Shown here: piece by piece, positions 6,803 through 62,460 of the stretch | Numbering within the stretch: the stretch's first letter is position 1 | Layout: the number at the start of each line of letters is the position of its first letter | Assembly: GCA_046563655.1 (NCBI GenBank) | Contig: CM102289.1 | Coordinates: forward strand, 9,548,001 to 9,612,000 | Length of the DNA stretch: 64,000 nucleotides | Source: Yuukianura sp. NJ FZ-2021 | Taxonomy: Eukaryota | Direction of reading: 5' to 3' | Made by a program: the position numbers and the translations under genes | The notes under the pieces: model-generated | The model's input: the letters and a program-made list of their open reading frames with translations, nothing else | Databases searched by the model: none | What the model was told of the DNA's origin: nothing

Positions 6803-9800
6803 CCCAAAGGGGTACCTTGTCGTGGGTACCCATTCCGCGGTAGCTTTAAGCGGTTAGCACTGTCTCCGCGGTTCTAAACTAAAAAAAACGAGTTTTTTTT
6901 TAGAAAAACCCAATGATGGCCACGCCCTTCAAAATAAAATTTTTTAATTTTTACACAAGGTACCCCAAAGGGGTACCTTGTCGTGGGTACCCATTCCGCG
7001 GTAGCTTTAAGCGGTTAGCACTGTCTCCGCGGTTCTAAACTCAAAAAAAAACAAGTTTTTTTTTGAGAAAAACCCAATGGTGGCCACGCACTTCAAAACA
7101 AAATTTTCTAATTTTTAAGAAAGGTACCCCAATGGGGTACCTTGACGTGGGTACCCATTCCGCGGTAGGTTTAAGCGGTTAGCACTGTCTCCGCGGTTGT
7201 AAACTCCAAAAAATAAAGTAATTTTTTGAGAAAAACCCAATGGTGGCCACGCCCTTCTAAAAAAAATTTTCAAATTTTTAACAAAGGTACCCCAATGGGG
7301 TACCTTGACGTGGGTACCCATTCCGCGGTAGGTTTAAGCGGTTAGCACTGTCTCCGCGGTTTTAAACTCAAAAAAAAAAACAAGTTTTTTTTTGAGAAAA
7401 ACCCAATGGTGGCCACGCACTTCAAAACAAAATTTTCTAATTTTTAAGAAAGGTACCCCAAAGGGGTACCTTGTCGTGGGTACCCATTCCGCGGTAGGTT
7501 TAAACGGGTGACAATTTCTCCGCGGTTATAAACTCCAAAAAAACATGATGTTTTTTGAGAAAAACCCAATGGTGGCCACGCCCTTCTAAAAAAAATTTTC
7601 AAATTTTTAACAAAGGTACCCCAATGGGGTACCTTGACGTGGGTACCCATTCCGCAGTAGGTTTAAGCGGTTAGCACTGTCTCCGCGGTTGTAAACTCCA
7701 AAAAAACAAGTAATTTTTTTAGGAAAACCCAATGGTGGCCACGCCCTTCAAAATAAAATTTTTTAATTTTTACACAAGGTACCCCAAAGGGGTACCTTGT
7801 CGTGGGTACCCATTCCGCGGTAGGTTTAAGCGGTTAACAATTTCTCCGCGGTTATAAACTCCAAAAAAACATGATGGTTTTTGAGAAAAACCAAGAACTG
7901 GCCACGCCCTTCAAAACAAAATTTTCAAATTTTTACACAAGGTACCCCAAAGGGGTACCTTGTCGTGGGTACCAATTCCGCGGTAGCTTTAAGCGGTTAG
8001 CACTGTCTCCGCGGTTCTAAACTAAAAAAAAACAAGTTTTTTTTTGAGAAAAACCCAATGATGGCCACGCCCTTCAAAATAAAATTTTTTAATTTTTACA
8101 CAAGGTACCCCAAAGGGGTACCTTGTCGTGGGTACCCATTCCGCGGTAGGTTTAAGCGGTTAACAATTTCTCCGCGGTTATAAACTCCAAAAAAACATGA
8201 TGGTTTTTGAGAAAAACCCAATGGTGGCCACGCCCTTCTAGACAAAATTTTCAAATTTTTAACAAAGGTACCCCAAAGGGGTACCTTGTCGTGGGTACCC
8301 ATTCCGCGGTAGCTTTAAGCGGTTAGCACTGTCTCCGCGGTTTTAAACTCAAAAAAAAAACAAGTTTTTTTTTGAGAAAAACCCAATGGTGGCCACGCAC
8401 TTCAAAACAAAATTTTCTAATTTTTAAGAAAGGTACCCCAAAGGGGTACCTTGTCGTGGGTACCCATTCCGCGGTAGGTTTAAACGGGTGACAATTTCTC
8501 CGCGGTTATAAACTCCAAAAAAACATGATGTTTTTTGAGAAAAACCCAATGGTGGCCACGCCCTTCTTGACAAAATTTTCAAATTTTTAACAAAGGTACC
8601 CCAATGGGGTACCTTGACGTGGGTACCCATTCCGCGGTAGGTTTAAGCGGTTAGCACTGTCTCCGCGGTTCTAAACTCAAAAAAAAACATGATGGTTTTT
8701 GAGAAAAACCAAGAACTGGCCACGCCCTTCAAAACAAAATTTTCAAATTTTTACACAAGGTACCCCAAAGGGGTACCTTGTCGTGGGTACCCATTCCGCG
8801 GTAGGTTTAAGCGGTTAACAATTTCTCCGCGGTTATAAACTCCAAAAAAACATGATGGTTTTTGAGAAAAACCAAGAACTGGCCACGCCCTTCAAAACAA
8901 AATTTTCAAATTTTTACACAAGGTACCCCAAAGGGGTACCTTGTCGTGGGTACCCATTCCGCGGTAGCTTTAAGCGGTTAGCACTGTCTCCGCGGTTCTA
9001 AACTAAAAAAAAACAAGTTTTTTTTTGAGAAAAACCCAATGATGGCCACGCCCTTCAAAATAAAATTTTTTAATTTTTACACAAGGTACCCCAAAGGGGT
9101 ACCTTGTCGTGGGTACCCATTCCGCGGTAGGTTTAAGCGGTTAACAATTTCTCCGCGGTTATAAACTCCAAAAAAACATGATGGTTTTTGAGAAAAACCC
9201 AATGGTGGCCACGCCCTTCTAGACAAAATTTTCAAATTTTTACACAAGGTACCCCAAAGGGGTACCTTGTCGTGGGTACCCATTCCGCGGTAGGTTTAAG
9301 CGGTTAACAATTTCTCCGCGGTTATAAACTCCAAAAAAACATGATGGTTTTTGAGAAAAACCCAATGGTGGCCACGCCCTTCTAGACAAAATTTTCAAAT
9401 TTTTAACAAAGGTACCCCAATGGGGTACCTTGACGTGGGTACCCATTCCGCGGTAGGTTTAAGCGGTTAGCACTGTCTCCGCGGTTCTAAACTCAAAAAA
9501 AAACAAGTTTTTTTTTGAGAAAAACCCAATGATGGCCACGCACTTCAAAACAAAATTTTCAAATTTTTACACAAGGTACCCCTTTGGGGTACCTTGTGTA
9601 AAAATTTGAAAATTTTGTTTTGAAGGGCGTGGCCAGTTCTTGGTTTTTCTCAAAAACCATCATGTTTTTTTTTGAGTTTAGAACCGCGGAGACAGTGCTA
9701 ACCGCTTAAACCTACCGCGGAATGGGTACCCACGTCAAGGTACCCCATTGGGGTACCTTTGTTAAAAATTTGAAAATTTTTTTTAGAAGGGCGTGGCCAC

Positions 9801-11773
9801 CATTGGGTTTTTCTCAAAAAACATCATGTTTTTTTGGAGTTTATAACCGCGGAGAAATTGTCACCCGTTTAAACCTACCGCGGAATGGGTACCCACGACA
9901 AGGTACCCCTTTGGGGTACCTTTCTTAAAAATTAGAAAATTTTGTTTTGAAGTGCGTGGCCACCATTGGGTTTTTCTCAAAAAATTACTTTATTTTTTGG
10001 AGTTTACAACCGCGGAGACAGTGCTAACCGCTTAAACCTACCGCGGAATGGGTACCCACGTCAAGGTACCCCATTGGGGTACCTTTGTTAAAAATTTGAA
10101 AATTTTGTCAAGAAGGGCGTGGCCACCATTGGGTTTTTCTCAAAAACATGTTTTTTTGGAGTTTACAACCGCGGATAAATTGTTAACCGCTTAAACCTAC
10201 CGCGGAATGGGTACCCACGTCAAGGTACCCCATTGGGGTACCTTTGTTAAAAATTTGAAAATTTTGTTTTGAAGTGCGTGGCCACCATTGGGTTTTTCTA
10301 AAAAAATTACTTGTTTTTTTGGAGTTTACAACCGCGGAGACAGTGCTAACCGCTTAAACCTACCGCGGAATGGGTACCCACGTCAAGGTACCCCATTGGG
10401 GTACCTTTGTTAAAAATTTGAAAATTTTGTCAAGAAGGGCGTGGCCACCATTGGGTTTTTCTCAAAAAATGTTTTTTTGGAGTTTACAACCGCGGAGAAA
10501 TTGTTAACCGCTTAAACCTACAGCGGAATGGGTACCACGACAAGGTACCCCTTTGGGGTACCTTGTGTAAAAATTAAAAAATTTTATTTTGAAGGGCGTG
10601 GCCAAGGTTTCTATAGCAACGAAATGCTTTAAGAGGTTTGGCAATAAGTCCTGTTTACAAAAAAATTCGCTCCAAACAATTTTTTACTCTGATTTTCCTC
10701 CAATCCCATTTGATTGCATATAAATCATTACCATAGGAAAGCTCGGTGAGCCAAGTTTTGCTAATTTTTAAACAAAATTTAAAACGCTTGAGTTATTGCC
10801 TAACCTATTGAAGAAAAAACTATTTTCTTGTTTACAAACCTTGGGCGTGGCCATCATTGGGTTTTTCTCAAAAAAAAACTTGTTTTCTTTGAGTTTAGAA
10901 CCGCGGAGACAGTGCTAACCGCTTAAAACTACCGCGGAATGGGTACCCACGACAAGGTACCCCTTTGGGGTACCTTGTGTAAAAATTTGAAAATTTTGTT
11001 TTGAAGGGCGTGGCCAGTTCTTGGTTTTTCTCAAAAACCATCATGTTTTTTTGGAGTTTATAACCGCGGAGAAAATGTTAACCGCTTAAACCTACCGCGG
11101 AATGGGTACCCACGACAAGGTACCCCTTTGGGGTACCTTGTGTAAAAATTGGAAAATTTTGTCTAGAAGGGCGTGGCCACCATTGGGTTTTTCTCAAAAA
11201 AAAACTTGTTTTTTTTTAGTTTAGAACCGCGGAGACAGTGCTAACCGCTTAAAGCTACCGCGGAATGGCTACCCACGACAAGGTACCCCTTTGGGGTACC
11301 TTTGTTAAAAATTTGAAAATTTTGTCTAGAAGGGCGTGGCCACCATTGGGTTTTTCTCAAAAACCATCATGTTTTTTTGGAGTTTATAACCGCGGAGAAA
11401 TTGTTAACCGCTTAAACTTACCGCGGAATGGGTACCCACGACAAGGTACCCCTTTGGGGTACCTTGTGTAAAAATTAAAAAATTTTATTTTGAAGGGCGT
11501 GGCCATCATTGTTTTTCTCAAAAAAAAACTTGTTTTTTTTTGAGTTTAGAACCGCGGAGACAGTGCTAACCGCTTAAACCTACCGCGGAATGGATACCCA
11601 CGACAAGGTACCCCTTTGGGGTACCTTTCTTAAAAATTAGAAAATTTTGTTTTGAAGTGCGTGGCCACCATTGGGTTTTTCTCAAAAAAAAACTTGTTTT
11701 TTTTTGAGTTTAGAACCGCGCAGACAGTGCTAACCGCTTAAAGCTACCGCGGAATGGGTACCCACGACAAGGT
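6803..11773. repeat. Satellite array, ~161-166 bp monomer; orientation inverts at ~9584
   Basis: About 29 tandem monomers, each with AAGGTACCCCaaaGGGGTACCTT, GGGTACCC and two CCGCGG; forward 6803-9582, reverse-complement 9586-11773. Confidence 0.97.
10603..10843. mobile_element. 241-bp MITE inserted in a satellite monomer
   Basis: TIR CAAGGTTT...AAACCTTG; 8-bp TSD GGCGTGGC at 10595-10602 and 10844-10851; removing it restores the monomer sequence gaagggcgtggccatcattgg. Confidence 0.85.
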
Positions 11774-11807
11774 AAGATAAGCGATAAACTATGGCACTAA
11801 ATTCCAG

Positions 11808-12239
11808 GTTGTGGAGAGAAGCAAAACGTTCCGAGCGGGGAGCCGGGACAGTCGAATCCGAACTTATTTTTATGGACGGATCGGTGGGCAAGTTCTGCAT
11901 CCACATTCGTTCCAAGTGAAACTTTCCGAAGTAATCTACAAAATCGGAAGTCCAGCTGTTCCATCATCTTGTCTCCCACTGGGCATGAAAGTGGACGAAT
12001 CCCGAACAAAGTTAGTCCCAGTAACACCGACGACTCAGCAGTTGCTGCATAAACTGCTCGCAATAAGTTTCGCTTCTGCTGCTGACGAAGACGTAATCCG
12101 GAAGAATGTTGCTGGTTACGTCTGTGTGACGGACATTGACGTGGAAAAGGGACGCATGACTGTTCTATCGCCGTCACCCGGACCACTCCCCAAGTTACTT
12201 CTTCTCCTTTCGGACATTCAGTTTATGGATTCCCAATAA
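11808..12239 (+). pseudogene. CLP1: Orphan 3' exon of CLP1 (polyribonucleotide 5'-OH kinase); no 5' exons in window
   Basis: ttccag|VVERSKTFRAGSRDSRIRTYFYG...IYKIGSPAVPSSCLPLGM...NVAGYVCVTDIDVEKGRMTVLSPSPGPLPK...DIQFMDSQ*; directly preceded by the satellite array. Confidence 0.8.
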
Positions 12240-12905: not shown

Positions 12906-14164
12906 ATGCTTGGTGTTGGCGGATTCCTTTTGAAACGGTGTACCGGTGTGGAAGCATTTTCCTTCCTGCAAAGTCAACGTAAGTAATTGGCGTCAATTTC
13001 ATACTTTAGTAGATTGCTTAAGCATTTAAACGTTTTTCTTGTGCCATTCCAGGGAACCTGACGTTACTCGGGAGGAGTGGAAGAGGAATTTCAGCAGCAA
13101 CCGTCTCTTTATTCAGTACCGGAGGAATCACAGGTCAAATGAATTTGGAATCAGCAAAGAAATTAGCAGCATTCCGCGCTGTTGATGACCATATCCTTGT
13201 TAGTTTCTAGAAAACAATGCTATTAATTAGTAACTGTCATCTTTTAGTTTTGCTATTTTCATTTCAGAACAACCAGGTCGTGGGAATCGGAAGCGGAAGT
13301 ACCGTCGTGTATGCTGTGGAGAGAATAGGTAAGCTATTTAGCTTTTAACTTGAACTGATTTAGTATGCAAGGTCATAATTTTTCTGATCTTCTTTCTTAG
13401 CTCAGCGCGTGAAGGCTGAAGGTTTGAAGTTGATTTGCATTCCGACATCGTTTCAAGCCAAAAATCTAATCATTGACAATGGACTAGTCTACTCTGATCT
13501 GGATGTTCACCCGCAGGTTCTTGTTACCTAATTTTTAAGATTTAAGTTTCAACCTTCGTTTCTAACACTGAAGAATTGAGTAAGAATTTTTAAACCAGAT
13601 CGACGTGACAATTGATGGGTGTGACGAGTGTGATGAGAAATTGAACCTGATTAAAGGCGGAGGTGGATGTCAACTTCAGGAGAAAATTGTAGCCTCTGCT
13701 TCCAAGAAGCTGATCATCATCGCTGATCACACGTAATGATTGCGATTAAAGCAAGTTGAGAGAAAATGTGACCACTTCTTGCACTGTTTTGATTTTGCAG
13801 AAAGAAATCTACTTACCTTGGGCAGACTTGGACAAAAGGCGTACCACTGGAAGTATCAATGATTGGATGGAAGGTTGTTCTTAAAAAGCTGGAAGAGCTT
13901 GGAAAAGAACTAAACGTCCGCACGGAACCGCAGATCCGCCATGCAGCTAAGAAAATGGGACCAGTGGTTACTGATGGCGGGAACTTCATCGTGGATTTCC
14001 ATATTGGAAATGTCTTTGAGTCACAAAATGTACATTCACCCAAATCCCTTGACGCAGCACTCCGAGACATCCCGGGGATACTTGAGACTGGACTGTTCAT
14101 TGGAATGGCGGAACAGGTTTACTTTGGACATGACGACGGAACAGTCTCCACTAGACTTAAGTAA
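12906..14164 (+). CDS. RPIA: Ribose-5-phosphate isomerase A, multi-exon; in-frame upstream ATG 12906, core ATG 13139
   Basis: Motifs [72 protein letters not shown]. Confidence 0.95.
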
Positions 14165-15222: not shown

Positions 15223-18200
15223 TTACTTTTGTAATTTATCCCCTTCTTTAGCAATTTTGATTTCATGATGAACAGAATCCTTAGTAGATGCTGCAGTACG
15301 TTCTGAAAACGTTTCAGAATTGCCAAAGTGAAAAATGTCAGCAGATTGTGTACCGTCTGGTCGACCTTGTTCAACAGTTTTGTAAAATTCAGTTGACTTT
15401 GGCCTATCTACTCCAGATTCTGCTGTGGTTGACTCCAAATGTTTCGAGTAGTGACCGAATTCAAATGCCTCTGATTTTTCCCGGTCATAACTTTTCCAAG
15501 ACCGTTCTTCACGAAAAGTCTCTTTGTTATAAAATTTTCCAACCTGAGGTGAATCGGTACGAGCGCGAATGAATTGAATCGGCGTGGTGGTGACAGAAAC
15601 GTATTTGGTAGGTGATACGGATCGTCGTACTTGCAGTTCTTCGTCATGCTCAACTGGACTTTCTATTGGACGAAGATAGAACTTGCATTCTTCCGTTTTA
15701 GTCATAGTTGTCGTCAGTTGTTTGTGTTTTTGAAGTGTATCGGATATCGGTTCGGCCACTTTGAAATTCATTTGGTCTGTCGTGATTTTTTCAGGTTCGG
15801 CCGTCTTCCGAATCGGTTTTGGAGGCGGAACCGGTTTCTGGGCAATCGGTTTTGCAATTGGTTTAGGTGGTGGCACGGGTTTCTGAAAACGGAAATTCAA
15901 AATTTCATAAAATTTCAAAATCGCTTTTTAAATTTCAAAATACTGAACCTCTAAGTTTGTCGACTTTGGTCGTGGTTCGTCCCAAGTTTTGGCGGTAAAA
16001 GTGGTCGGGCGGAATTCATACGCCGACATTGGACGGTTTTGTCTCGAACTTGGTGGAATCCAAATCGGTTCGATTTTGAACGACTCATAATCTGATTCAT
16101 AGTCGGATTCAGTAAATTTGGCGGGAACAAATTTCGTTGGACGCCGGATTCCCGCTGCATTGTTTGAATTTGAAGCAGCACTTTCTGGACGTGAATCTAA
16201 AAATGCTGGGCATACTGGAGATATTACTGGAGAGTCCACGCCATGACAGGAAACATGCTCAGAGTAGTTCGTCTGGAAATTTCTACTGACTGAATCGTAT
16301 TTTGAAGTTTCACGAACCGAACTGATTCGATACGCCGGTCCGGCTGGAGAAACCGGAGTGTCGTCAGGGTTACCTTCAAAAAGTTGACGAAAATGACCAA
16401 CCTTCCCTCTGGCGGGAAATTCCACTTGGATTGGCACAGTTCTTGGTGAGTGCGGCTGAATTTGAGTTTCCCGCTCTTCTTTTGTCTCAGTTTCAAACAT
16501 TTTCCGGTAGTCCTTGACTTTTTTCCGGGGAAATGTTTCATAACTTCGGTTTTTGGCACTAATTTCATTTGTTTCCTCGGGAAAATCAACTCTAGTTGTC
16601 ACTGTTTCTTCGAAGTTGTCAAAAAATCGTTTCGTTGTGGTCACAACGGATTTCGGACTTTTGAGTTCGGCCGGAATTCGGTTTGAACTGTCTTCAGTTG
16701 GTTTGACCTTGACTTCTCTCCATTCATTGGATAAACGGCGTCGAGGAGGAGGAGCTTGTTTTTGATTGGTCGGAGTAGCACTCTCTATGTTGATTTGACT
16801 GTTTAACGCGTTCACCAACTCCAATACAGATGGACGTCTGTCTTCAGATACTTTATCCTGAAAAAAAATTGTAAATTTTTAGAAATTTTTGAAAAGTAAT
16901 AAATTTTTAGAAGTTTTTGAAATTCTAAAGTTAGTTTAAATTGGACCAACATTCTGAAATTTGTTGTCTGGTTCTTGCACATTCGACTGAGTCGAAAAGT
17001 TGCGTAGAAGTTGCGGTGATGCTTCGTGCGTTTGCGTGATGCTGTCAAATTGCAATTTCGGTTCCTGGTTCGTTCCTGTCGTTTCGTAAGTCGTTTCAGA
17101 CTCTTTGCAAGTTAAAATTCGTTTTTTGGAAATGAGTTCCGGTGATTCAGATTTAACAGAAGTTTGAGTTTCAGAAGTCAAAAGTAATTTCGCAGGGCTT
17201 TCTGGTCTCAAGTTTCCAAGGTCACCGGCAGCATTGACCTCCGAAGTTTTGGGCATGTCACTTTGAACAGATTTCTCCGAAACTTCAACTTCATGTTCAG
17301 GAAGTGTTGGCGTCTGCGTTTGAATTGTGGAGAGTAGTTTTGCAGGTTGTTGCATCACTAGAACAATTGGTTCTGGAGATTTTTCAGTCAGCGTCTGTGT
17401 TTCAGAGTTGGCAATGATCTTGGCATCTCTCTCGGACGTTTGTGTTTGCATTGTGGACTGCTCAAAGATTGTTTGCACTTCGTGGTCTGAAACGGCCGAA
17501 AAATAATCAGCGATTGGTTCAGCGAAAGCGAAATTATTCGGGTTTTGAGAAACAGAATGTTCACGTCGCTGATTTTCTTGAGTCGGCGCATTGCCGTTGG
17601 GCGGCAAAAGTACTTCTTGCCTAATTACTTCTGTAATTGTTGTTGATTCTATCAAAAAAAAATCACAAATTATTGAATTACAAATTACATAATTGCAATA
17701 TGAATTACATACGAATTGTTTATACTATGATATGTTATATTATTAGTATATTATATATTATATTTTAATATTTATATATTTATATAGCAATATTACGGAA
17801 AATGTTGCGTTCCAACTCCATAATTTCGCGAATGTACAGAATCCGATCCGGTTTTTGAATTAATTCATAAAATTGGAGGCATTGCAGAATTTTGTTTTTC
17901 TTTTCGTACATTTTCTCGATGAGTTCCAGCGGCGGATTATCCATTTCCTGTAATAAGTAAAAAAAAATTTTTTTTTTGAATTTCAAAAATTTTTTGATTT
18001 TTTAGCTTTTTTCATATTCATACTTCTACTATTGCTTCAAATTTTTGAAAATCCCGCAAATCACTTCGAGCGGTATCCAGGTTTTCCGGAAGCGGGAAAT
18101 CCAAAGTTTTGAATAAATGTTCCAAATGCTCCTCTCTCAATTTTTGAGCTTCCAGTGCTTCCCTTTCCGCTGCTTTTCGTTTTTCTTCAGCGTCAAATCG

Positions 18201-21200
18201 CTGTTGAGCTTCAAGGTCAAGTTGGATTTGAATTTCACGGTGACGCTGCAGTTCCAGCGCCTGCCTTCGCTGTTCTTCCAGCGCTTGTTGCTTTTGCTCT
18301 TCTGTTTTTCGCTGATTTTCTAACTCAGTTTGACGTTGCTTTTCAACTTCAATCTTTTGACGTTCAAAATCAAGTGCTTTTTGACGTTCAAAATCAAGTT
18401 GTTCCAGCTCATGTCGCTTCTGCTCCAGCTCCAGCTCCAATTGCTGTTCAAGCACTTTGTTTTGACGTTCACGATCTAAGTTAGCTTGACGAAGTTGACG
18501 TAGACGTTCGTTCTCTACGTCAATTTCAAGTTGACGCAAAAGCTCAGCCTCACGAAGACGTTGACGTTCGAGGTCTTCCAATTGCCGTTTTTGCTCAGCT
18601 TCGGCCCTTTGACGCTCCAATTCTTCCAATTGACGTTGCCGTTCATCGTTGATTCGTCGCTGATTCTCTTCAAGTTGACGCATGCGCTCTTCTTCTGCGG
18701 CTTTTTGCCTTGCTACTTCTTCCAATTGACGTAGCCGCTCCTGTTCAACTTTTTGACGTTCTAGTTCAAGTTCATGACGTATTCGCTCCGCTTCGGCTTT
18801 TTGTTTCTGCAGGGCGTCAAGTTGACGTTGACGGTCGGCCTCTAATTGCCGCTCGTGCGTTTCCAGTTGACGTTGTCGCTCGTCATCTTCTTTTTGTCGC
18901 TGAAGTTCTAGGAGTTTGCGCTGTTGCGTCAATTCTTGCTTTTGACGTTGAAGTTCCTCTTGGATAAGTTGACGTTGTGCTTCTTCCAGTACAAGTTGTT
19001 GCTGAAGTTGCTGCTCGAGCTGCTGTTGGTGAAATTCGGCTTCGGCTCGTCGCTGCTCAAGTTCCATTTCGGCTTGACGTCGTTTTTCCTCTATTTCGGA
19101 TTGTTGACGTCTTAGTTCCTCTTCGGCTTGTTGACGGTTTTGCTCAATTTCGGCCTGTTGACGCCTCAACTGGTCTTCAGCTTGTTGAAGTATCAGCTGA
19201 GCTTGGGCTTGTTGACGCATCAATTCTGCTTCGGCTTGTTGACGTATTCGTTCTGCTTCGGCTTGTTGACGTTCAAGATCAGCTTGTTGACGTCTAAGTT
19301 CAGCCTCTTGACGTAAACGATCTGCTTCAGCTTCTTGACGTAAACGTTCTGCTTCATCTTGTTGACGTTTAACTTCTGCTTCAGTTTGGAGACGTAACTG
19401 TTCAGCTTCAGCTTGTTGACGTCTCACTTCTGCCTCAACTTGTTGACGTATTTGTTCTGCTTCAGCTTGTTGACGTCTAAATTCCTCTTCACTCCGCAAT
19501 TCTTCCAGCTTTTCCTGTTTTTCGTTTTCCGCGTTGATTTGTTCTTCCAAACGAGTTTGAGGAGGGCCGCTGTGCAATCCATACGATTCTTCAACCAGAA
19601 TTTGTTCCTCAAGTTCATTCAAATTTTCAGTTTCCCGCTCTTGTAATTGAACTTCCAATTTGGCAGGTTCATTGCCCTCGTTCAGGTCACTGTCTCTTGC
19701 TGTTTGACGCAAACGAAGCAACTTGTTGTGAGCTTCTCTCGTGTCCAATGTAGGGTCCTACAAAATCAAAACATAAATATAAGTCTGGTATTACTTAATA
19801 AAAAGTAATAAAAATGACCGATAATTATTAGATGCTAATTAATGGGTTACTTTTAAGATTTAAAAAAAGCACGATTTTGGTCTGAAACCCTCTAAAATGT
19901 TGTTAATTCTTCATTTATAAAAAATTTTGTTTTTGTCCAACACCACCAAACCTTCCAATTTTCTACAGAAGGACTTTTGGAAAAAGTCAGGATTAGGCTA
20001 ACAAATTCACTACAGTGCATTTTCCTTTTTTATGGAAATTTAAAAAATTCCAAAATATTGTTTTTCTGAAACACCATCACACCTTCTAACTTTCTACAGA
20101 AGGACTTTTGGATAAAGTCAGGATTAGGCTAACAAATTCACTACAGTGCATTTTCCTTTTTTATGGAAATTTAAAAAATTCCAAAATATTGTTTTTCTGA
20201 AACACCATCACACCTTCTAACTTTCTACAGAAGGACTTTTGGAAAAAGTCAGGATTAGGCTAACAAATTCACTAAAGTGTATTTTCCTTTTATATGAAAA
20301 TTTAAAAAATTCCAAGATATTGTTTTTCTGAAACACCATCACACCTTCTAACCTTCTACAGGAGGACTTTTAGAAAAAGTCAGCATGTCGAAAAAAATTG
20401 CTAAAGAAAACTTGTGAAGGATGGAGGGGCCAGAGCGAAGGCCCAATACGGACGCTTAGTATGCTGTTAATTCCAACAAAGTAAACATCAAGAACAAAAA
20501 TGTGAGTACCCAATTGCAGATAGTTTCGATGTGGCCCTCACTGAACGCAGTTGGATTTTCCACCATGGCGTCAAATTTCTTTTGAATTTCGTATCTCGTT
20601 GCGACAGTTTCCCTTAAAGGATTCGGAACTTCAGCACGGCAGCAAAGATCTGAAGAAAGCACAGCAGCATAGGAATTTTCAAATCCAGGAGCATCCAGGA
20701 CGTTGTTGGCGCTCAAAAATTTTGCAACGGCTTCAGCTCGATTCAAAAGTTCACTAAAATGTTGACATTTTGCACTCAGAGTGGCTCTTTTTGGAAGTTC
20801 TTCATCTTTGTCAAAGTTTTGCAAAACGTCTTCAATGTTCTTAATCTTTTCTTTCAGAATCTACCCAAAAAACGAAAATTAGAAAAACGCTTTTGTTTCC
20901 AAATTTTGTATTTCACTAACCAAAATTTCTGATTCTTTTGCTGCAGACGATCCCAGACTCGTGTATCGGACTTCCACATCTTTCATTTCATCCTCAAAAT
21001 ACTCAAACAGCGATTTCAGTGAACCGGTTTTTGCAGCGCGAATTTGAGCTAGCGCTGAAGCAATGTCCAGACCAGGATCCTGTGTACAAAAAGCAGAAAT
21101 TTTTGAAAAAAATTACTGGAAATGTTGAACTGAGTTCAAAGTTTTTGTTTTCTTGCCAAATTGAGTAATTTTTCAATGGCTTCGTCTTCATAATCGAACG

Positions 21201-22797
21201 GATTTTCCAAAATGGTTTCAAAATTATTTCGAGCCTCTAGTCTTTTTTCGAGGCGTGATTTAAGTTCATCTGCGTTGTTCAATCCAAAAGTATCCATCAA
21301 TTTGAGTTTTTCTTCATAAACATGTTTGAAGTTGGGTTGTGCCAAAATTGTGGTGGTTTGAAGAAAATGTTTAATTTCTTGTTCCAGTTCCATGACTATG
21401 GTCACTCTCTCAACCAAATTGAAAATTAGTCGCTGGAGATGCAATTTGTGGGATTCTGTGGTCTCGGATTTGTCTACACGCGAAGACAAATGGAGAAGAG
21501 AGTTACGAATCTCCTAAAAATTACAAAAATTACAGAAACCTCAAAATTAAAATCAATTGATAACTCGAAAAACCCATTTTCAGCTAAATTCTGCAAACAT
21601 TTTGCAATTTTTCAACCTTCCTAAACATCAACTTTTGCAATAATTGTAGAATTGTTCCCTTAGAAACTCAGAATTTTTAGAATTTGTGTAAAAAATTTTT
21701 TCAAAATTTTAACAGGATTGTGCTTACTTGAGGATCATGTCCAGCTTGAAATTTGGCTTCAATTTCCTGGATGATCCGTTCGTATTCCTTGGCATTCAAA
21801 TTTTGACGGTCTTTGCTTGCAATTAATTTCACTCCTTTCGTCCATTCTTGTCGAGCTGCTTGAAGTTCATCCAACCAAATGTATACAAGTCCAATTGCTA
21901 AAAAATGAAAATTGAAAAGTCAAAAACTGAAATTTGAGTTTCAAAATTTTGAAGTTACAGTAAGAAGCTTCGTCAGGTTCATCCTTGACAACATGTTTCA
22001 ATTTGTCAATTAGTCTTCTGCCGTCTTCAACTGCGTATCGGTAGGTCACTAAAACAATCTTCTTGTCTTGATTTAGTTGAGTGAAATAGTCAATACAGTT
22101 TGACCGATTCCTGAAAACAAAATTTTATGGACAAAAGTTTGCAAAAAAAAAAGTTTGAAAATTCATTTACGTATGAAATTCGAAAGCCTTTTTCAAAATT
22201 TGTCTCCTTAAATCCAAAGTTGCGTTGACATCTTTCCAGGCAATTCCAAGAGACGCTGCCATTGCTTTATAAACTTGCGGATTTTTGGTTGGACCAACCT
22301 TGTCTGCTTGCAAAAGCATTTCTTCTACTGGGGTCTGTTTTCCCTGAAAAAATAAAAACGAAAATTTGGAAACACTTTTTCGAAAATTGAAAATTTTTTA
22401 GTCTGTTACTTTCAATTTCTCCATAACTTGTTCATGTTGTTTCAGCATTTCCTCAGAATCAGAAGTATTTCTTGCTATACTGCCCAGTTTTGGCGCCATT
22501 TCCAAAATTCTTAAGTTTATAAAATGTCCACTCTAACAAAAACCAAAAACAATAAAATAGACAAATGTTAGTTAACTTTTAATTAAGTTTTCCAATTGCA
22601 AAATTTTCTAAAATTTTGAATTTGAAATTTCTAAATTTTTGGTTTTTGTTTACTTGAAGTACGGCTATGACCGCCCGTGTTTTTCCTGATTCGATTGCAA
22701 TTGTTGAAATGGTGGTCGTTTCCGGGTAACAATTAAGTGCAGGCTCTGCATTTCCCTCCATGTTGCCCAATCTCAAAATCGTCTCAGCCGTGGCCAT
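15223..22797 (-). CDS. Zormin/CCDC141-like protein: spectrin-like N-terminus, E/Q/R-rich helical segment, ESDYESD motif; multi-exon
   Basis: Spliced N-terminus TTTISTIAIESGKTRAVIAVLQ|SGHFINLRILEMAPKL...EMLKQHEQVMEKLK|...VYKAMAASLGIAWKDVNATLDLRRQIL resembles the CCDC141/Zormin N-terminus; C-terminal RPTKFVPAKFTESDYESDYESFKIEPIWIP resembles a Zormin motif (from recall). Internal exon borders approximate. Confidence 0.7.
19935..20385. repeat. Intronic tandem repeat, 131-bp period, ~3.5 copies
   Basis: CTACAGAAGGACTTTTGG at 19963, 20094 and 20225, variant at 20356. Confidence 0.92.
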
Positions 22798-24250: not shown

Positions 24251-24510
24251 GTGTCACAATTTGTGACACACGTCGGAGTAGTGCCAAATTTTTGAAAGAA
24301 ATTGTGACGTAGAAGGTGGGGGATTTTATATGTCACGGGAAATATTTTTGGCTGCACAAACGGACCCCAAACAACACCCTACACGCCTCCATATGCAGAG
24401 GCGGATTTTTTAAAATAAAAGCGTCAAAATTTTGCCATACATTCCCCTGTGTCACAATTTGTGACACCCAGGGTCAACACGCGTTGTCAGCTGTGTCACA
24501 ATTTGTGACA
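24251..24510. promoter_or_regulatory. Three copies of the palindrome GTGTCACAATTTGTGACAC upstream of the H3-like gene
   Basis: Copies at 24251-24269, 24449-24467 and 24493-24510; regulatory role is inferred only. Confidence 0.5.
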
Positions 24511-24740
24511 ACTTTTTTTATGAAGACTAGCCTATGGTACTTTTTGTGCCTCGACTAGTAGCACCGACCGTGACAAAACCGATGGTAGCCGTACGGTTAA
24601 AAGGTAACGCAATAAAATAATATAGCTAACTTATTCATAATTATTGAGTTGTGCTCAATGGAGTTATGCATAAGGTACAGAAAGTTCTGGTGATGCGAAC
24701 CATTTTTTTTTGTTCTTTTTATTTACAGTAAACTGTAGAA

Positions 24741-26259
24741 ATGAAACGACGCTCGCGCAGAACTTCCACAACTGCCTGGACCATTGTCACTGAAAATCCT
24801 CGCAAGCGACAACGCAAAGATGACAACGAGCAGCATAGGGCCAATAAGAGGCGTCGCAAATGCCTGGAGTGCGTTTGCAACTCACGTCGAGGTCAGATCT
24901 TGACCACGTCCACTCCAACACCAGCACATCTAGACGGAAACTCATCAGTAGTTCGTGACTCGTCACCTCATGTCAACATGTCAGTGTCACGCATTGCACC
25001 GTCCGGAGATGAAGGTGGACACCTTCACTTGACACCTCCAACCACCGACTCATCCCAGGAAATAGTAGTTCCGCCAACACCGTCCTTTGAGAAGAAACGG
25101 ATTGTCTACGTAAGGTACACGTAAACTCAAAACTAAAATTACACAAGTTACATAACTTACATAAACTCTTGGATTTTTCATGTCAGGAGAGTCGAGACTA
25201 AGAAGAGGGGAAATGCTAAAGTCAAAACTTCGTCAAAGGGGAACCCGGACAATCCAGACGCTGGAACGCGCAGGACTGACACTCCCATTCCAAGTCCTGG
25301 CATGCATGACTCCGATACTCCTACTCATGACCCCGACATTCCTAACACTGATACTCCTATTCCTGCACCGGACATTCCTAACACTGATGATACTCCTATT
25401 CCTGCATCGGACATTCCTATCACTGATGCGCCTATGCCTGACCGGGTCACTGTTGCCGATGACACTCCAATTCCTGACCCAAACACTGTTGCCACTGTCA
25501 CTTCAATCACTGACCCGAACACTGTAGCCATTGTTACTCCAATTACTGACCCGAACACTGTTGCCGCCCCAATTCCTGACTCAAACACTTTTGCCGCTCC
25601 AATTCCTGACCCAAACACTGTTGCCGCTAACACTCTACTTCTTGATCCGAACACTGTTGCCACTGTCACTCCGATTCCTAACCCTGACACTGTTGCCGTT
25701 CACACTCCAATTCCTGATCCGAACACTGTTGCCACTCCAATTCCTGACCCAAACACTGTTGCCACTCCGATTCCAAACCCTAACACTGTTGCCATTCAAA
25801 CTCCAATTCCTGATGCAAACACTCTTGTGTCTGCTGCAACGTCAACTTCCAAAAAACGTTCCCGGATATTCTCTTCTATCACTCTAACGCCGACCTTAGA
25901 AATTCCGGTGATGGAAGTGAAGCGATTGGTAATGGAGGTGCTGGCTCAAGTCAATCCGCAGCTTAGAATTCAGTTTGGAGCTATTATGGCACTACATGTA
26001 AGTTAATTGTAAACCATCTCACTGTAAAAACCAAAAAAAAACATTTCCAAATTTTTTTCAAAATTTTCAGGAACTTTGTGAGGAGCACATCACTTTGTGG
26101 TTTTCGGACCTTAACCTTTGCTCACAACATGCTGACCGCTCCACTGTCACGGAGACTGACGTTCTTTTGCGGAAAAATTTAATCCAAGGCGGTAAAAACC
26201 CGTACGCCACTCGTCGCAGTGACCCTGACGACACCGAAAATGACGACTACTACTACTAG
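24741..26259 (+). CDS. Divergent histone H3-fold protein with very long N-terminal tail (~457 aa; exons 24741-25114, 25187-25997, 26071-26259)
   Basis: GT-AG introns with matching phases give one open frame ending LEIPVMEVKRLVMEVLAQVNPQLRIQFGAIMALH|ELCEEHITLWFSDLNLCSQHADRSTVTETDVLLRKNLIQG, which aligns without gaps to H3 [73 protein letters not shown]. Confidence 0.85.
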
Positions 26260-26849
26260 GTCACTACATGCTAACGCTAACTCTTGTGTAAAGTAGATCA
26301 TGCTGTCATCCTGTTAAAAAAACGACGAATTTCGCATGAATGCTACAAAAAATTAGATTTTTCTTTTTTAAGTTTTGTCAACCTTCCGTACTAGAAGTTA
26401 GAACTTTGTTAAATCAAGAGACATGAATTAAAAAGTAGTTTTTGTAAAATATGCTTGTTTTGAAGTCCCTGTAAACTACTGATTTTATTGGTAAATTTTA
26501 TACTCCAGATTACATTTAAAGCAAAAATTGAAATTACCGGTAGATGACAACTTAGTAATTTCAAATTCAGTTTTTTAGTTTAGAGCAATGATAGTTAGGC
26601 AAACACCGATTTGTGATGATGATGTAAATTACAACTGTGAAGACATTTTACAAATTTTGGAAATAGCAGCACACACTTTTGGTAGCATTTTGCTATAATT
26701 ACCTCTCACACTTTCAAGTTTTAAATTATAATGATCCCAGTATAATTTTATAATTTTTTTTTATAATATCAGCCAAACTAAAATTTAACAATGAGCAAAT
26801 GCACCAAACCACGTCGGCCTTTTGGAGTCAAAGGGCGTGTACTATTAAT

Positions 26850-27263: not shown

Positions 27264-29077
27264 TTACTGATCCTCATCGCCTAGGTTGTGCTTTACTTTA
27301 GAAAAATCAAACTCCTCTCCAGTCCCGCGCTTGAAAATGTCCAGTACATCCAAACAGGTTGTTTCAAAGTGAGTGGTTGCATCATAAGATTCAGAAATGA
27401 ATATTTGAGAGTCAATTCCAGAATCCATGGGTTCATAGTAGTCAGACACACTGATAAACCTGTACAAATTAACATAAATCATTACATTAATTATCAATTT
27501 AAGTAAAGGTGTTTCAGTTGTTAATTACTTTTGCTTGATTGGACCAAGAAGGGCTAAGCCTGGCTGAATTTCTTGCTCGGGGTTGGCCGTTTCCACAGTC
27601 GTAGAGACCATACCGACAAACCACCCTTTCGCAGCGACTTGATGAGTGTTGCTCACCATTGACACATAGATATCTAAAAAATAAGAAATGTTGAAATACT
27701 TGCGAAATACTTGTCCAGCACATGCTGATTCAGGATATCATACCTGATTTGCGATTAACTTGCTTTTGAGGAATAATGATCTGAGTGGAAAGTGCATCCT
27801 TGGTGTTTGGAATAGGATGATCCAAGAGACAAATACAACGGACGACTTGTCCAACCTTCTTCACACGGTTAGGAAGGTAAGATGGATCGCAGTACACCTA
27901 AGTAATTATACATTTTCATTACAAAAACGTCAACAACAAAATTGCCCACAACAAAAATGTCAACAGAAAGTGAATGTTGGTGAAACCCAGACTAGCTTAG
28001 CAGTTTTGGACTGTGACTGTACCTGTTTGCATTTTGCAACTTCATCGCCAGATTTCACTCCAACTACTTTGCCATTGTCGTCCAACACGATTTCATCAAC
28101 TTGTTTGTCCAGCATGTACGTCCCGCCATAAATTGCGCTCAATCTGAATTCAAATAATTGCAATTTACTTTAAAAAAAAGTGACAAAAATGACAAAATTA
28201 CTGCAAAAGTGACGTTTGGATACTTACCTTGCAAATCCTTGAGGAAGTTCTCCCAATCCGTACATTGGATACAAGTAAGGACTCTTTCCATATCGAGCCA
28301 GTGAGTCCGAGTAGAGTCGAATTCTTCTGATTGTCTCCAGTGCTGGTTTCCGAATGTAGTCATCGTCTCGCATCAACGCCAGAGCATGCCCAGTGAAATC
28401 TTGAGTGTTGGCATCCAATCCAAACTTCTCATAAAGTTGCAACACAGTTTGGGTCCTGGGATCAAAATCCTTCCATGTCTTCGGATCGTCTTCCTTGAAC
28501 TCAGCGACGTAGCTCAAAAAGTTCTTGAACCGACGTTTCTCGAAAAGTCCCATCAATTCTAATTAAAAAAAAACAGCCATTAACGTAACCATAGTGCCAA
28601 GTATAACCACCAACGTCATTTGTACTCACCAGAGGTAAGTGCCTCTCGCTCATCAGCTGGAACTTTAGCGATTTTCCCTCCCTTGTAGACATAACTGCCC
28701 TCGACGGACTTGAATTCCAAGTAGCGCGTAACTCCAGTGTGAATGAGCAATTTGACAAGCTGCCCATTAGCCATTAGAAACTTCGGAATCAGATCCACGT
28801 TCCAGTCTCTTCCACGGCCATACATTTGCTCATCGGGCTTCGGGTAATCGAATTTACTAAAAAGATCTTCCAGTGGAGTCATGGATGCAGTTTCTCCGCC
28901 GTAGTACTTGTTTCGATCAATATGCAGAACCTTCTTTCCAGAAACAGACAGCATACCGCTCAGGATACATTCCTAAAGTAACATATTACAACAGTTTAGT
29001 AATTGAATACATTTGACTATGTTCATGAATACCTTCAGTCCAGTTCCAAGAACAATTGCGTCGTATGATTCATCCAT
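27264..29077 (-). CDS. GDI: Rab GDP dissociation inhibitor, multi-exon
   Basis: [103 protein letters not shown]. Confidence 0.97.
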
Positions 29078-31106: not shown

Positions 31107-31197
31107 TCGTGTTCCACATGGTTTGCACTACAACAGGTGCCGGGAATTTCAAAAATCACCAGAGCACCTGATGAAGTACAATTGACAATGGACACGG
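31107..31197 (-). ncRNA. mir-305: pre-miR-305
   Basis: Minus strand 31182-31160 reads AUUGUACUUCAUCAGGUGCUCUG (mature miR-305-5p); pairing arm CGGCACCUGUUGUAGUGCAAAC at ~31142-31121. Confidence 0.95.
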
Positions 31198-31334
31198 GCA
31201 GTATTCCAGCATCAGCATCATCAGTATCAGCTTCATCAGCACCAGTATCCGCTTCGTCATCAGCAATCAGCTTCAACTCTCGCTAAAACTCACTCGCACC
31301 GCTACAAATATCCGATGAATCAGACGAAAGTGAC

Positions 31335-31410
31335 ATCCACTCCGCGCGCTACTTCAGGTACCTGACTGCTCAAATAGTTCAGCCGAACTACCTGCGTAGT
31401 GCGCAGAGGA
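31335..31410 (-). ncRNA. mir-275: pre-miR-275
   Basis: Minus strand 31365-31343 reads UCAGGUACCUGAAGUAGCGCGCG (mature miR-275-3p); 5p arm CGCACUACGCAGGUAGUUCGGCU at 31403-31381; lies just upstream of miR-305, as in the known cluster. Confidence 0.95.
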
Positions 31411-33584
31411 ATATCAGCAGTATCCGGCGGAATATCAGCAGTATTCGGAGGGTTATCAGCAGTATTACTGGAAAGTCACTGGAGGAAACCGATATTGTGC
31501 AACCTCGGTCACTGGCAGTCCTTTGTGTCAAAGTCGATGAACTTTGGATGTTGGCAAGGTGCCGACGTTGGTTCTGGTACGGTGCTCGTTCCTTTCATTA
31601 CTGTCTACTGTTGTCAAGGAGCAGAGTTGTCTGGTTGGCCATTCTCTCGTCCTCCACGAGTCTCCTGAATGATTATGAATGAACCACCACCTACTAACGA
31701 GCTTTCAGCCTTCTTCCCTGCACAGCTCAGCCTCTGCCCCAAATTCCTCCCTTCATTCAATTCCAAATGGAGAACATCAAGGTGTTGCGGCGACAGCAGC
31801 CACTAACGGTCGTCAACCTAATCAAATTCATCAACAAACAAAAGTTTAATACAAAATTGCTCCAGTTTTTAGCACTCACCCCCCATAGCTCCAAAAAAGA
31901 AGAGCTTCCATTCCAAAATACGTATGAATGACCCCCATAAAATCAGTCCATTCAACTTGTTTTTCCCAGTAAATGTCCATATCTTACCTTTCATTCATTC
32001 TACTATTATCTGCAGAGTTAAATCAATATTTAGGAATCAAATCTACAATTATCACTTTTGAATTGAATTGATGACTGTACTCTTGGAATGACTTTAGAGA
32101 GCAGAGTGAGTGCACCGTTCGACTACAAGTCAGTGACTAGACTTACCAAGTGAGACACAAAGATGATACTGCGCTTAGAACTCCTTCATTTGGATCCCTT
32201 CACACAAAGTGTAGTCTTTGAGCAGCAGTTTAGTCTAGACTCCACTCCTCCACTTCTCAAAACACAACCCACACCAACAACTGCACACTGCACACTGCAA
32301 AATTATGCCTCTACCAGGAGGAGTTGAGTTAGTGCCCAGACGAGACTCCCTTCTAATGCACTCACTCAACGTCGTCGTCTCCTCTCCTCATCCTCCACTT
32401 ACATTTTAAGACTCACATGATGACACCAGCCAAGAATCCAACTCACAAAAAATTATCCTTAACATTCGGAGCCTGAGCTGCATAATAATCACAAGTCACA
32501 ATGAACTGATCACCCTGCAAAAGACAAAAAATAGACAGTTGATCCTTCAAACCAACCAAACCATCCTCATCTCCCACTTCCCAGACAACACTCTGCACTT
32601 TCGCCAAATTCCTCTCCCTCTTACCAGACTCCTCAAAAAGAGCGGAAAAAAATCAACTTAGATTCCTCAAAAAGAGGGGGAACATCCACTCTTTACAGAT
32701 TCTTTCAAAAAAAGAGAGAAAAAAATTAAAGTGTAATTTATAAGCAGGGATGTCAAAAATATTTAGTCTGCATGCCCCTGATTTTAATAAAAAATATTTA
32801 AGGGTTTTTCGTTACTAAATAAATATTTGTGCAATTTTTGAAAAAAAAAAAACATTTTTCATCAATATTTCGGGAGTTTGTGAGTACATATTTTCGACAA
32901 CACTGTTTATAAAAGTGACTCTAATTCAAAAACGTTTAAAAATCGTTACGTTCAACCCGGATTCCCACCTCCATTTCTGAAATCGTCACCTGGAAACGTC
33001 CTGATGACGACATTCACAGAAATGGACACTATGAGTAAGAGGCATCTCCATAAATCACGCCAACTTACTTGAGTCAAACAGTTTCACGCGAACCCAAGAA
33101 ACACGGAAACATTTATGAAGGCACCAGTTCGAATCACGAGATCCGATTTACAGATTGTGAGTTAAATTATGTAAACCAGGAGGAGTGAATTTACGTTGAA
33201 ATTGTTATAAAAAAAATCAAACCGGACTTCTTTTTATCCACGCCAATTATTGGGAAAAAAATGGCACTCACAATTTGATTCTCTGAAATTACCACAAGAC
33301 CACACATCGGAATGACCGAATGAGCCAGAAATAAAATCCGTTGAGGCACTAAAGAAACAAATGCTACTTTTTAGTCACTCTGAGCATTGAATGATTCGTC
33401 TAACGTCCCAACCAACATAACTTCTTGGCCGTTGTGCTACAACATGGAAACCCACAAATCACCGACTTTATCACACCATAGTCATATTTGTATAACTCTC
33501 CTTAATCACTTCTTTGTCTCCTTCCTTTCATTTTCTTATCTCTTGCATTTTTGCACAAAAAAAACCACATTACATTCGTTTAGG

Positions 33585-57630: not shown

Positions 57631-58118
57631 CGCTTCACGCCTGAAACACATAGATCACGTTAATAATACCATAACTTTAACTGAACACAACAATATTAAT
57701 ACTACTGCGGAACTGCTGTAAATAAACCGTAATCAACTGTACATCAATGTACGTAAACCTTACACAAACCGTACATAAACTGTATACACATACTTCTCAT
57801 TGCTAAACGTAAAGGTCACAGGTCGGCTGGTGACACTTACCAAGTGGAGAGGTGGATGAACGTTTCGTCAATGCTTATCTTGCCGGGTTGTCATAAACAA
57901 CTTAGCTTTTGCTATAAATCTGTCACCCGAATTCCTTAACCTAAAGTAAATCGAAAAGTTATGTTAACAAATCTCCATTTTTGTGTTATTTTGTTTACAA
58001 ATATCCTCTTTTACCTTCTCTTCGTATGCGGAGATGCGAATGTGAATGTACGGAAGCGTAAAAGGGCCAACTCGCTTCCCGATTACCTCCTCCATAAGCA
58101 ATACATTGGAGTTGAACT

Positions 58119-58500
58119 GCGCGGTTCCCAGTACTCGGTTCCCGGTTCCCAGTACTCGGTGCGCGGTTCCCAGTACCCGGTGCGCGGTTCCCAGTACTCG
58201 ATTCCCAGTTCCCAGTACTCGATTCCCGGTTCCCAGTACCCGGTGCGCGGTTCCCAGTACTCGATTCCCGGTTCCCAGTACCCGGTGCGCAGTTCCCAGT
58301 ACCCGGTGCGCGGTTCCCAGTACTCGATTCCCAGTTCCCAGTACTCGATTCCCGGTTCCCAGTACTCACTGCGCGGTTCCCAGTACCCGGTGCGCGGTTC
58401 CCAGTACTCGGTACCCGCTTCCCAGTACTCAGTGCGCGGTTCCCAGTTGTCGCTGCGCGGTTCCCAGTTGTGCTGCGCGGTTCCCAGTTCTCGCTTCCCA
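58119..58500 (+). repeat. 21-bp minisatellite (GCGCGGTTCCCAGTACTCGGT-type), left arm
   Basis: About 18 tandem units visible. Confidence 0.95.
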
Positions 58501-62075: not shown

Positions 62076-62460
62076 CTGGGAAGCGAGAACTGGGAACCGC
62101 GCACTGAGTACTGGGAACTGGGAACCGCGCACTGAGAACTGGGAACCGCGCAGCGAGAACTGGGAACCGCGCAGCACAACTGGGAACCGCGCAGCGACAA
62201 CTGGGAACCGCGCACTGAGTACTGGGAAGCGGGTACCGAGTACTGGGAACCGCGCAACGAGAACTGGGAACTGGGAACCGAGTACTGGGAACCGCGCACT
62301 GAGTACTGAGAAGCGGGAAGCGAGTACTGGAAAACGCGCACCGAGTACTGGGAACCGGGAATCGAGTACTGGGAACCGCGCACCGAGTACTGGGAACCGC
62401 GCACCGGGTACTGGGAACCGCGCACCGAGTACTGGGAACCGCGCACTGGGCATCGAGTAC
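62076..62460 (-). repeat. 21-bp minisatellite, right arm (inverted counterpart of 58119-58500)
   Basis: Tandem ACTGGGAACCGCGCACCGAGT-type units. Confidence 0.95.

Follow-up and report, generated by a model that had tools for sequence, protein, structure and literature searches.

We analyzed a single stretch of genomic DNA of 64 kb (the window), and all coordinates given here are positions in that window, read on its forward strand. Three open reading frame pieces on the forward strand (24732-25124, 25137-26006, and 26002-26259) can be joined into one frame through two GT-AG introns, which yields a predicted spliced coding sequence of 1374 nt in three exons, encoding 457 amino acids, for a gene that is unannotated. 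The first-pass annotation had proposed that the open reading frame track splits such a gene and that splicing restores a protein of this length; its coordinates proved exact and the three pieces join, the splicing itself being predicted. The reading frame starts with the ATG at 24741-24743 and ends with the TAG at 26257-26259, and this ATG is the earliest possible start because an in-frame TAA lies upstream of it at 24729-24731. The features of the gene are as follows.

24604-24728, forward strand: possible intron in the 5' untranslated region (donor AAAAG/GTAACG near 24603/24604, acceptor ttatttacag/ at 24728)
24741-25114, forward strand: exon 1, residues 1 to 124 and two bases of codon 125; basic N terminus with three Lys/Arg clusters and CLECVC
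25115-25186, forward strand: predicted intron 1, 72 nt, GT...AG
25187-25997, forward strand: exon 2, remaining tail, tandem repeats, and first half of the histone fold (α1, loop 1, and the start of α2)
25314-25827, forward strand: coding minisatellite found by TRF, periods of 30 to 39 bp, about 11 units of 10 to 12 amino acids, TPIPDPNTVA-like and rich in Thr-Pro
25896-25997, forward strand: N-terminal half of the histone fold, aligning to H3 residues 60 to 93 (tblastn HSP)
25998-26070, forward strand: predicted intron 2, 73 nt, GTAAGT...ttttcag, phase 0
26071-26259, forward strand: exon 3, rest of the fold, acidic C-tail, and stop codon
26071-26181, forward strand: C-terminal half of the histone fold (rest of α2, loop 2, and α3), aligning to H3 residues 94 to 130
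26182-26259, forward strand: acidic C-tail and TAG, 25 residues ending in DDYYY, extending about 21 residues past the end of H3

Gene model

The two predicted introns differ in how firmly they can be placed. Intron 2 has consensus ends (CAT/GTAAGT ... ttttcag/GAA) and is positioned exactly between the codons aligned to Q93 and E94 of H3. The first tblastn HSP stops precisely at the end of exon 2, at H3 Q93, and thus intron 2 is read as a phase 0 intron between these two codons. H3.3 genes may have an intron at the same place, Q93/E94, as the first-pass annotation had proposed (ALH/EL here, ALQ/EA in H3.3); a literature search for the H3.3 intron position found nothing. The assignment of intron 1 is less certain than that of intron 2, since it depends on use of the second of two neighboring candidate donors. 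The donor that keeps the frame is AAG/GTACAC at 25114/25115, and the rival, TAC/GTAAGG at 25109/25110, lies 5 nt upstream, looks at least equal by eye, and would produce a frameshift that leads to a stop. A further intron upstream of the ATG is possible, as read from its donor and its polypyrimidine-cag acceptor. A potential donor GT inside exon 3, at 26192-26193, was rejected because all four DNA runs described below have G at position 26193.

According to the open reading frame list, approximately 260 non-repeat codons are open in just one frame, while all frames are open across the repeat array. The latter would suit a mis-modeled gene, in which an H3-derived fragment happens to lie next to low-complexity sequence that is open, whereas the former speaks against it, as do the GT-AG ends of both introns. 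When the window was scanned with Rfam at gathering thresholds, two matches (mir-305 and a tRNA) and no histone 3' stem-loop were obtained.

Histone fold

The spliced fold aligned without gaps to residues 60 to 130 of canonical H3, with 27 of 71 residues identical (approximately 38%) and a score of 55.5 bits, and the alignment spans the junction between exons 2 and 3. The reference H3 was cut from a fused canonical H3 in the protein library (P0008), and its residues are numbered without the initial Met. When H3 was compared with the 64-kb window by tblastn, it matched in two collinear pieces (25896-25997 and 26065-26181; E value of 2.7e-7), a similarity beyond what chance would give, and no other H3-like sequence was detected in the window. 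H4 matched the fold solely in the generic L2-α3 motif, at 21.6 bits. The identical residues include R69, R83, C110, H113, R116, T118, D123, and L126, of which C110, H113, D123, and L126 belong to the H3:H3' four-helix bundle and R116 and T118 to L2. Three basic residues of H3 are lost (R63 to P, K64 to V, and R72 to M), and the alignment reads Q68 as K, F84 as I, and T107 as L. Loop 1 shows no gap relative to H3 and hence no lengthening. The αN helix is not recognizable, the alignment to H3 beginning at L60, and H3 residues 1 to 59 match nothing at this gene at an E value of ≤10 (tblastn over the 64-kb window); elsewhere in the window, the only matches of these residues were weak ones to a repeat array, unrelated to the gene, near 62300. 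The features of the fold that had been described in the first-pass annotation (a gap-free H3 fold, R69, R83, C110, H113, R116, D123, and L126 kept, R63, K64, R72, and the ARTKQTARKS tail lost, Q68, F84, and T107 substituted, and loop 1 not lengthened) were each recovered in the alignment.

The composition of the fold departs from that of H3. Seven of the 11 basic H3 positions in this region are lost (R63, K64, R72, K79, K115, K122, and R129), and the 71 residues contain 6 Lys plus Arg versus 10 Asp plus Glu, compared with 11 versus 8 in H3. An acidic fold with these losses seems odd for a histone that wraps DNA, and like the unrecognizable αN helix, it speaks against a nucleosomal role, although the H3:H3' bundle residues are intact.

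Searches with the individual exons gave a more mixed picture. Exon 3 matched 157 PDB sequences at an E value of ≤10, and the best 60 of these 157 were all H3 chains (top E value of 0.0022); the exon 2 half of the fold, searched alone against the PDB, matched nothing. Against Pfam, the unspliced exon 3 half scored 18.2 bits with Histone (PF00125; cutoff of 26.4), and the exon 2 half gave no score with this family. The top Pfam score on exon 3 was with CENP-S (PF15630; 23.4 bits versus a cutoff of 28, E value of 8.2e-5, residues 2 to 33 of the exon), and CENP-T_C (PF15511) gave 16.3 bits versus a cutoff of 28.1 (E value of 0.01, 24 residues). These two scores would favor a histone-fold kinetochore protein outside the H3 family; however, both are under their cutoffs and cover 24 to 32 residues of the generic L2-α3 motif, which matches H4 too, whereas the whole 71-residue fold aligns to H3, including the H3-specific C110, H113, D123, and L126. 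Because the H3 alignment is gap free over 71 residues across an exon junction, the fold is, as judged by alignment, a divergent member of the H3 family and not of CENP-T or CENP-S.

Among 1.84 billion representative proteins, exon 3 had six matches: two unrelated repeat proteins (P0003 and P0004), one protein of 3829 amino acids (P0005), and three fused canonical H3 proteins (P0006 to P0008). The protein atlas returned only leads, with scores of <0.9, and all of them were histone-fold clusters. No orthologue of the gene was recognized in the protein searches with exons 1, 2, and 3, and this result carries less weight because the searched libraries apparently lack the proteome of a close relative.

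The first-pass annotation had suggested a structure prediction with H4. A three-chain prediction, in which the fold was entered as its two halves together with H4, scored 0.43 versus 0.15 for the best control, a mark that 51 of 78 solved complexes attained, as did 2 of 108 mismatched pairs, in a range (passes of ≤0.60) where passes are more often wrong than right. Contact agreement among the runs was at least 82%, and the partner pLDDT was at least 60, with a value of 61 for every run. Since H3 and H4 are a textbook pair, the pass may owe something to solved structures that the predictor already knew. The prediction lends weak support to a fold that may pair with H4.

N-terminal tail, repeats, and C terminus

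Approximately 360 residues precede the aligned fold. The first 60 are strongly basic (pI of 11.7) and contain KRRSRR at residue 2, RKRQRK at residue 21, and KRRRK at residue 36, followed by CLECVC at residue 41. Residues 151 to 345 are acidic and consist chiefly of Pro, Thr, Asp, Ile, and Ala, and Thr-Pro occurs 16 times in the full-length protein. At the other end, the last 25 residues are acidic (pI of 4.2), the final 12 (residues 446 to 457) being DPDDTENDDYYY. The basic clusters, including the KRRRK-CxxCxC element, and the acidic tail that the first-pass annotation had listed were all located in the spliced protein, and its Pro/Thr/Asp repeat region turned out to be a genuine tandem array of about 11 units (25314-25827). 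No Pfam family was detected in the exon 1 or exon 2 tail. The exon 1 protein had no homologue at an E value of ≤10 when 467 candidates among longer proteins were considered, and the exon 2 protein had none at an E value of ≤0.01 among 7151 candidates. Together with the H3 alignment and the residue check, the 457-residue model bears out the description of a giant-tailed, divergent H3 variant.

Variation among DNA contigs

We compared the window over 24600-26400 (1.8 kb) with DNA contigs from two organisms (four runs), in which no joined exons were seen. The locus is very polymorphic, with at least 65 base differences over 1.8 kb. The counts by region use the 40 listed differences of these at least 65; 34 of the 40 are in the coding sequence, where 12 are synonymous and 22 nonsynonymous. 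For the listed differences, the regions compare as follows.

Exon 1: synonymous to nonsynonymous 6:5, pN/pS 0.28, P value for synonymous excess 0.035
Tail and repeats: 4:11, pN/pS 0.98, P value 0.586
Fold and C-tail: 2:6, pN/pS 0.88, P value 0.574
Whole coding sequence: 12:22, pN/pS 0.62, P value 0.123

From the synonymous excess in exon 1, the N terminus looks constrained, while purifying selection is not clear from these counts for the fold and C-tail or for the coding sequence as a whole. Three of the 12 listed indels are inside the coding sequence, all in one contig (a 21-bp deletion in the repeat array plus changes of 1 and 2 bp), and their total of 24 nt leaves the reading frame intact. 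Outside the coding sequence, intron 2 and the flanks carry the remaining nine, some of which have lengths not divisible by three; those in intron 2 are +2, -1, -4, and -3. Since the indels in the coding sequence keep the frame and the others do not, the frame appears to be maintained among haplotypes and organisms. The changes Y455D and Y456N occur in all four runs. Exon 3 has six positions at which the base of the window is found in none of the four runs, and thus the haplotype of the window is not represented in them. A maintained frame, a constrained N terminus, and a fast-changing fold are as compatible with rapid evolution of a CenH3 as with a relaxation of constraint.

Nature of the H3 variant

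These observations are best explained by a histone H3 variant gene that contains introns, is replication independent, and belongs to an arthropod, probably a springtail; our verdict is that the gene, with its predicted splicing, is real and unusual. A replication-dependent histone gene does not fit, as there are two predicted introns and no 3' stem-loop, and neither does canonical H3 or H3.3, as the conserved tail (ARTKQTARKS...) and αN are missing. The gene is similar to H3.3 replacement genes in containing introns and in its replication-independent type, but it differs from H3.3 in the lack of the canonical tail and αN and in a fold identity of only 38%.

Within this class, a centromeric-type H3 (CenH3, Cid-like), either the only one of the lineage or a paralogue, is the most likely reading and has in our estimate a probability of about one-half. 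Drinnenberg et al. (2014) listed as marks of CenH3 a longer loop 1, a divergent tail, the absence of Gln, Phe, and Thr at three positions, and phylogenetic grouping. The N-terminal tail here is divergent, and K, I, and L occupy the positions aligned to Q68, F84, and T107; that paper numbers the three positions 69, 85, and 118, and if its "118" is literally T118, that residue is kept here. Loop 1, in contrast, is not longer. This departure weighs less because the CenH3 of Dictyostelium is a proven centromeric histone despite a short loop 1, and its authors stated that a loop 1 extension is not obligatory (PMC2995078).

The Dictyostelium protein (H3v1) has 619 amino acids and a C-terminal H3-like domain (PMC2995078). 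It resembles the product of the gene studied here in combining a giant unique N-terminal domain, a C-terminal H3 domain, and an unextended loop 1, so a precedent exists for a CenH3 that has both a long tail and a short loop 1. The two tails are unrelated in sequence, the likeness being one of description and not of sequence comparison, and since Dictyostelium is an amoebozoan, any likeness would be convergent. Members of the CenH3/CENP-A family such as Drosophila Cid, the mosquito Cid paralogues, and C. elegans HCP-3 likewise have a C-terminal H3 fold behind an unrelated, fast-evolving N-terminal tail, likewise have Q68, F84, and T107 replaced, and likewise are encoded by orphan genes without a histone stem-loop. 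In contrast to them, the protein predicted here has a loop 1 that is not longer, a net acidic fold, and a 25-residue acidic C-tail. A review-style account gives CenH3 in general a fold approximately 50% identical to H3 and tails of 20 to 200 residues, compared with approximately 38% and approximately 360 residues before the fold in our case. Drosophila Cid is a single-exon gene, whereas two introns are predicted here. We thus file the gene among the divergent CenH3-type H3 variants, in which it is unusual for its repeat tail, its loop 1 without extension, its acidic fold, and its acidic C-tail.

The first-pass annotation had offered two possibilities, an unusual CenH3 or a new lineage-specific H3 variant. 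These remain the right pair, with the tail and the Gln/Phe/Thr positions as predicted for CenH3 and the loop 1 extension not found, and the evidence fits either. The second member of the pair, a lineage-specific noncentromeric variant, for example one restricted to the germ line or to a stage, with the true CenH3 elsewhere in the genome, we regard as rather unlikely. Such a protein would use its H3 fold to enter or cap chromatin, its long repeat tail serving another purpose. The unextended loop 1, the acidic fold without 7 of the 11 basic H3 positions, the high polymorphism of the locus, and the fast change of the fold would all agree with this possibility, and so would the 25-residue acidic C-tail, which contrasts with the short C terminus of canonical H3. 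To our knowledge, animal H3-family proteins wholly without the canonical tail are nearly always CenH3, which argues against a noncentromeric role, as do the replacements of Q68, F84, and T107. CenH3 paralogues and their turnover, described as common in Drosophila and mosquitoes, also speak for this possibility, but a short loop 1 is tolerated by a proven CenH3 (PMC2995078).

A decaying, nonfunctional, or mis-modeled gene appears improbable. The lack of any annotation or recognized orthologue, the pN/pS values close to 1 (0.98 for the tail repeats and 0.88 for the fold), the repeats open in all frames, the stronger-looking intron 1 donor that breaks the frame, and the satellites and C-terminal-only Clp1 fragment in the neighborhood (see below) would agree with it. 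Against it stand the non-repeat codons open in one frame alone, the consensus ends of intron 2, the H3 alignment that runs gap free across the second junction, the frame-keeping indels of the coding sequence compared with those of the intron and flanks, the synonymous excess in exon 1, and the presence of the structurally critical H3 residues.

CENP-T is regulated through Thr-Pro sites. A CENP-T-like or CENP-S-like protein whose long tail connects DNA with the outer kinetochore would share the long disordered tail, the C-terminal fold, and the 16 Thr-Pro sites, but it is hardly credible given a fold that aligns in full to H3 and PDB matches of which the best 60 of 157 are all H3. The likeness to CENP-T raised in the first-pass annotation holds for the architecture, a long proline-rich tail with Thr-Pro followed by a C-terminal histone fold, and fails for the fold itself, which is H3-like, stays below the CENP-T_C cutoff, and has no identified two-helix extension.

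For the centromeric-type H3, we infer that the gene would be spliced and expressed and that its product would pair with H4, be incorporated into chromatin, and function at the centromere. The basic N terminus with its three Lys/Arg clusters would carry the protein into the nucleus, where the C-terminal H3 fold would pair with H4. The retained bundle residues C110, H113, D123, and L126 could then join a second copy to give a variant (H3-like/H4)2 core, with the tail of approximately 360 residues, including its roughly 11 Thr-Pro-rich repeats, and the acidic C-tail projecting from the particle as docking surfaces. As a long shot, a springtail centromeric H3 of this kind might have taken on a CENP-T-like job through its tail, the Thr-Pro repeats forming a multivalent, phosphorylation-controlled dock for the outer kinetochore and the de-basified fold with the acidic C-tail giving a loose particle. 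The repeat array would then be an expandable part, and the particle perhaps would be noncanonical. If the host is a globular springtail, the variant could also mark chromosomes for programmed elimination, which a review describes for this group.

No description of a springtail centromeric histone was found in the literature searches made; among the papers listed, a single review mentioned Collembola, and Collembola and springtail terms had 0 occurrences in the insect CenH3 survey and in a 2026 centromere atlas preprint. CenH3 is reported to have been lost several times among insects. Springtails sit just outside the insects, and a CenH3 candidate from this group with a very long repeat tail, an unextended loop 1, and a de-basified fold would shed light on the state ancestral to hexapods and on how much drift of the CenH3 fold remains workable. 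If the gene is not centromeric, it would be a rare animal H3 variant without the canonical tail.

Neighborhood of the gene

The following features were recorded around the H3-like gene.

24253-24267, 24451-24465, and 24495-24509, no strand assigned: three copies of the 15-bp near-palindrome GTCACAATTTGTGAC, 232 to 488 bp upstream of the ATG
11781-12239, forward strand: Clp1 C-terminal exon (Pfam Clp1, E value of 6.9e-35), comprising only the C-terminal 145 residues

The near-palindrome occurs at three sites (six strand matches) with ≤2 mismatches, compared with 0.28 expected, and none of 100 shuffles reached six; outside 24253-24509 it was not detected in the rest of the 64-kb window. Its copies are possibly promoter or transcription factor sites or the remnant of a mobile element.

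A 163-bp satellite of approximately 29 copies forms three blocks, at 6803-9597, 9572-10604, and 10843-11774, the second of them inverted relative to the others, and it stops 7 bp short of the Clp1-like open reading frame. The N-terminal ~290 residues of Clp1, taken from two full-length homologues, had no match in the window, and the piece may be a truncated copy or a gene interrupted by the satellite. Among 554 candidates, 83 proteins matched the Clp1 exon at an E value of ≤1e-10; the best named match was from the springtail Allacma fusca (68% identity), and the best overall was an unnamed protein (72%). In a tree of 30 of the 83 matches (the named proteins plus the top unnamed ones) and the window, the window grouped with Allacma and four unnamed proteins with support of 100/99, on a long branch. 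As judged from this one gene fragment, the host is thus probably a springtail. The gene cbc of Drosophila, "crowded by cid," encodes the CFII partner of PCF11, and a Clp1 piece 12.5 kb upstream of the H3-like gene recalls the synteny at Drosophila cid. We dropped this synteny as evidence because Clp1 is represented by a C-terminal piece only, which abuts a satellite, two genes intervene, and the contexts of the mosquito Cid genes, as far as they are described, differ.

A ribose-5-phosphate isomerase gene was found at 13793-14164. Between it and the H3-like gene is a large gene on the reverse strand (15223-21513) with a 579-residue exon containing Gln/Glu/Arg-rich, coiled-coil-like repeats, in which no Pfam family was detected. 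Downstream, the arthropod microRNA pair mir-275/mir-305 lies on the reverse strand at 31115-31418, its members approximately 140 nt apart; in the Rfam search, mir-305 (31115-31190) scored 71 bits and mir-275 (31331-31418) scored 52.2 bits, slightly below the cutoff of 56 (E value of 6.7e-9). The pair is approximately 2.1 kb from Rab GDI exons at 28224-28972 on the reverse strand. Finally, two arrays of a 21-bp repeat (58118-58493, 18 copies, and 62084-62446, 17 copies) lie in opposite orientation approximately 3.6 kb apart and flank a segment that bears open reading frames, possibly as the two termini of a foldback-type element.
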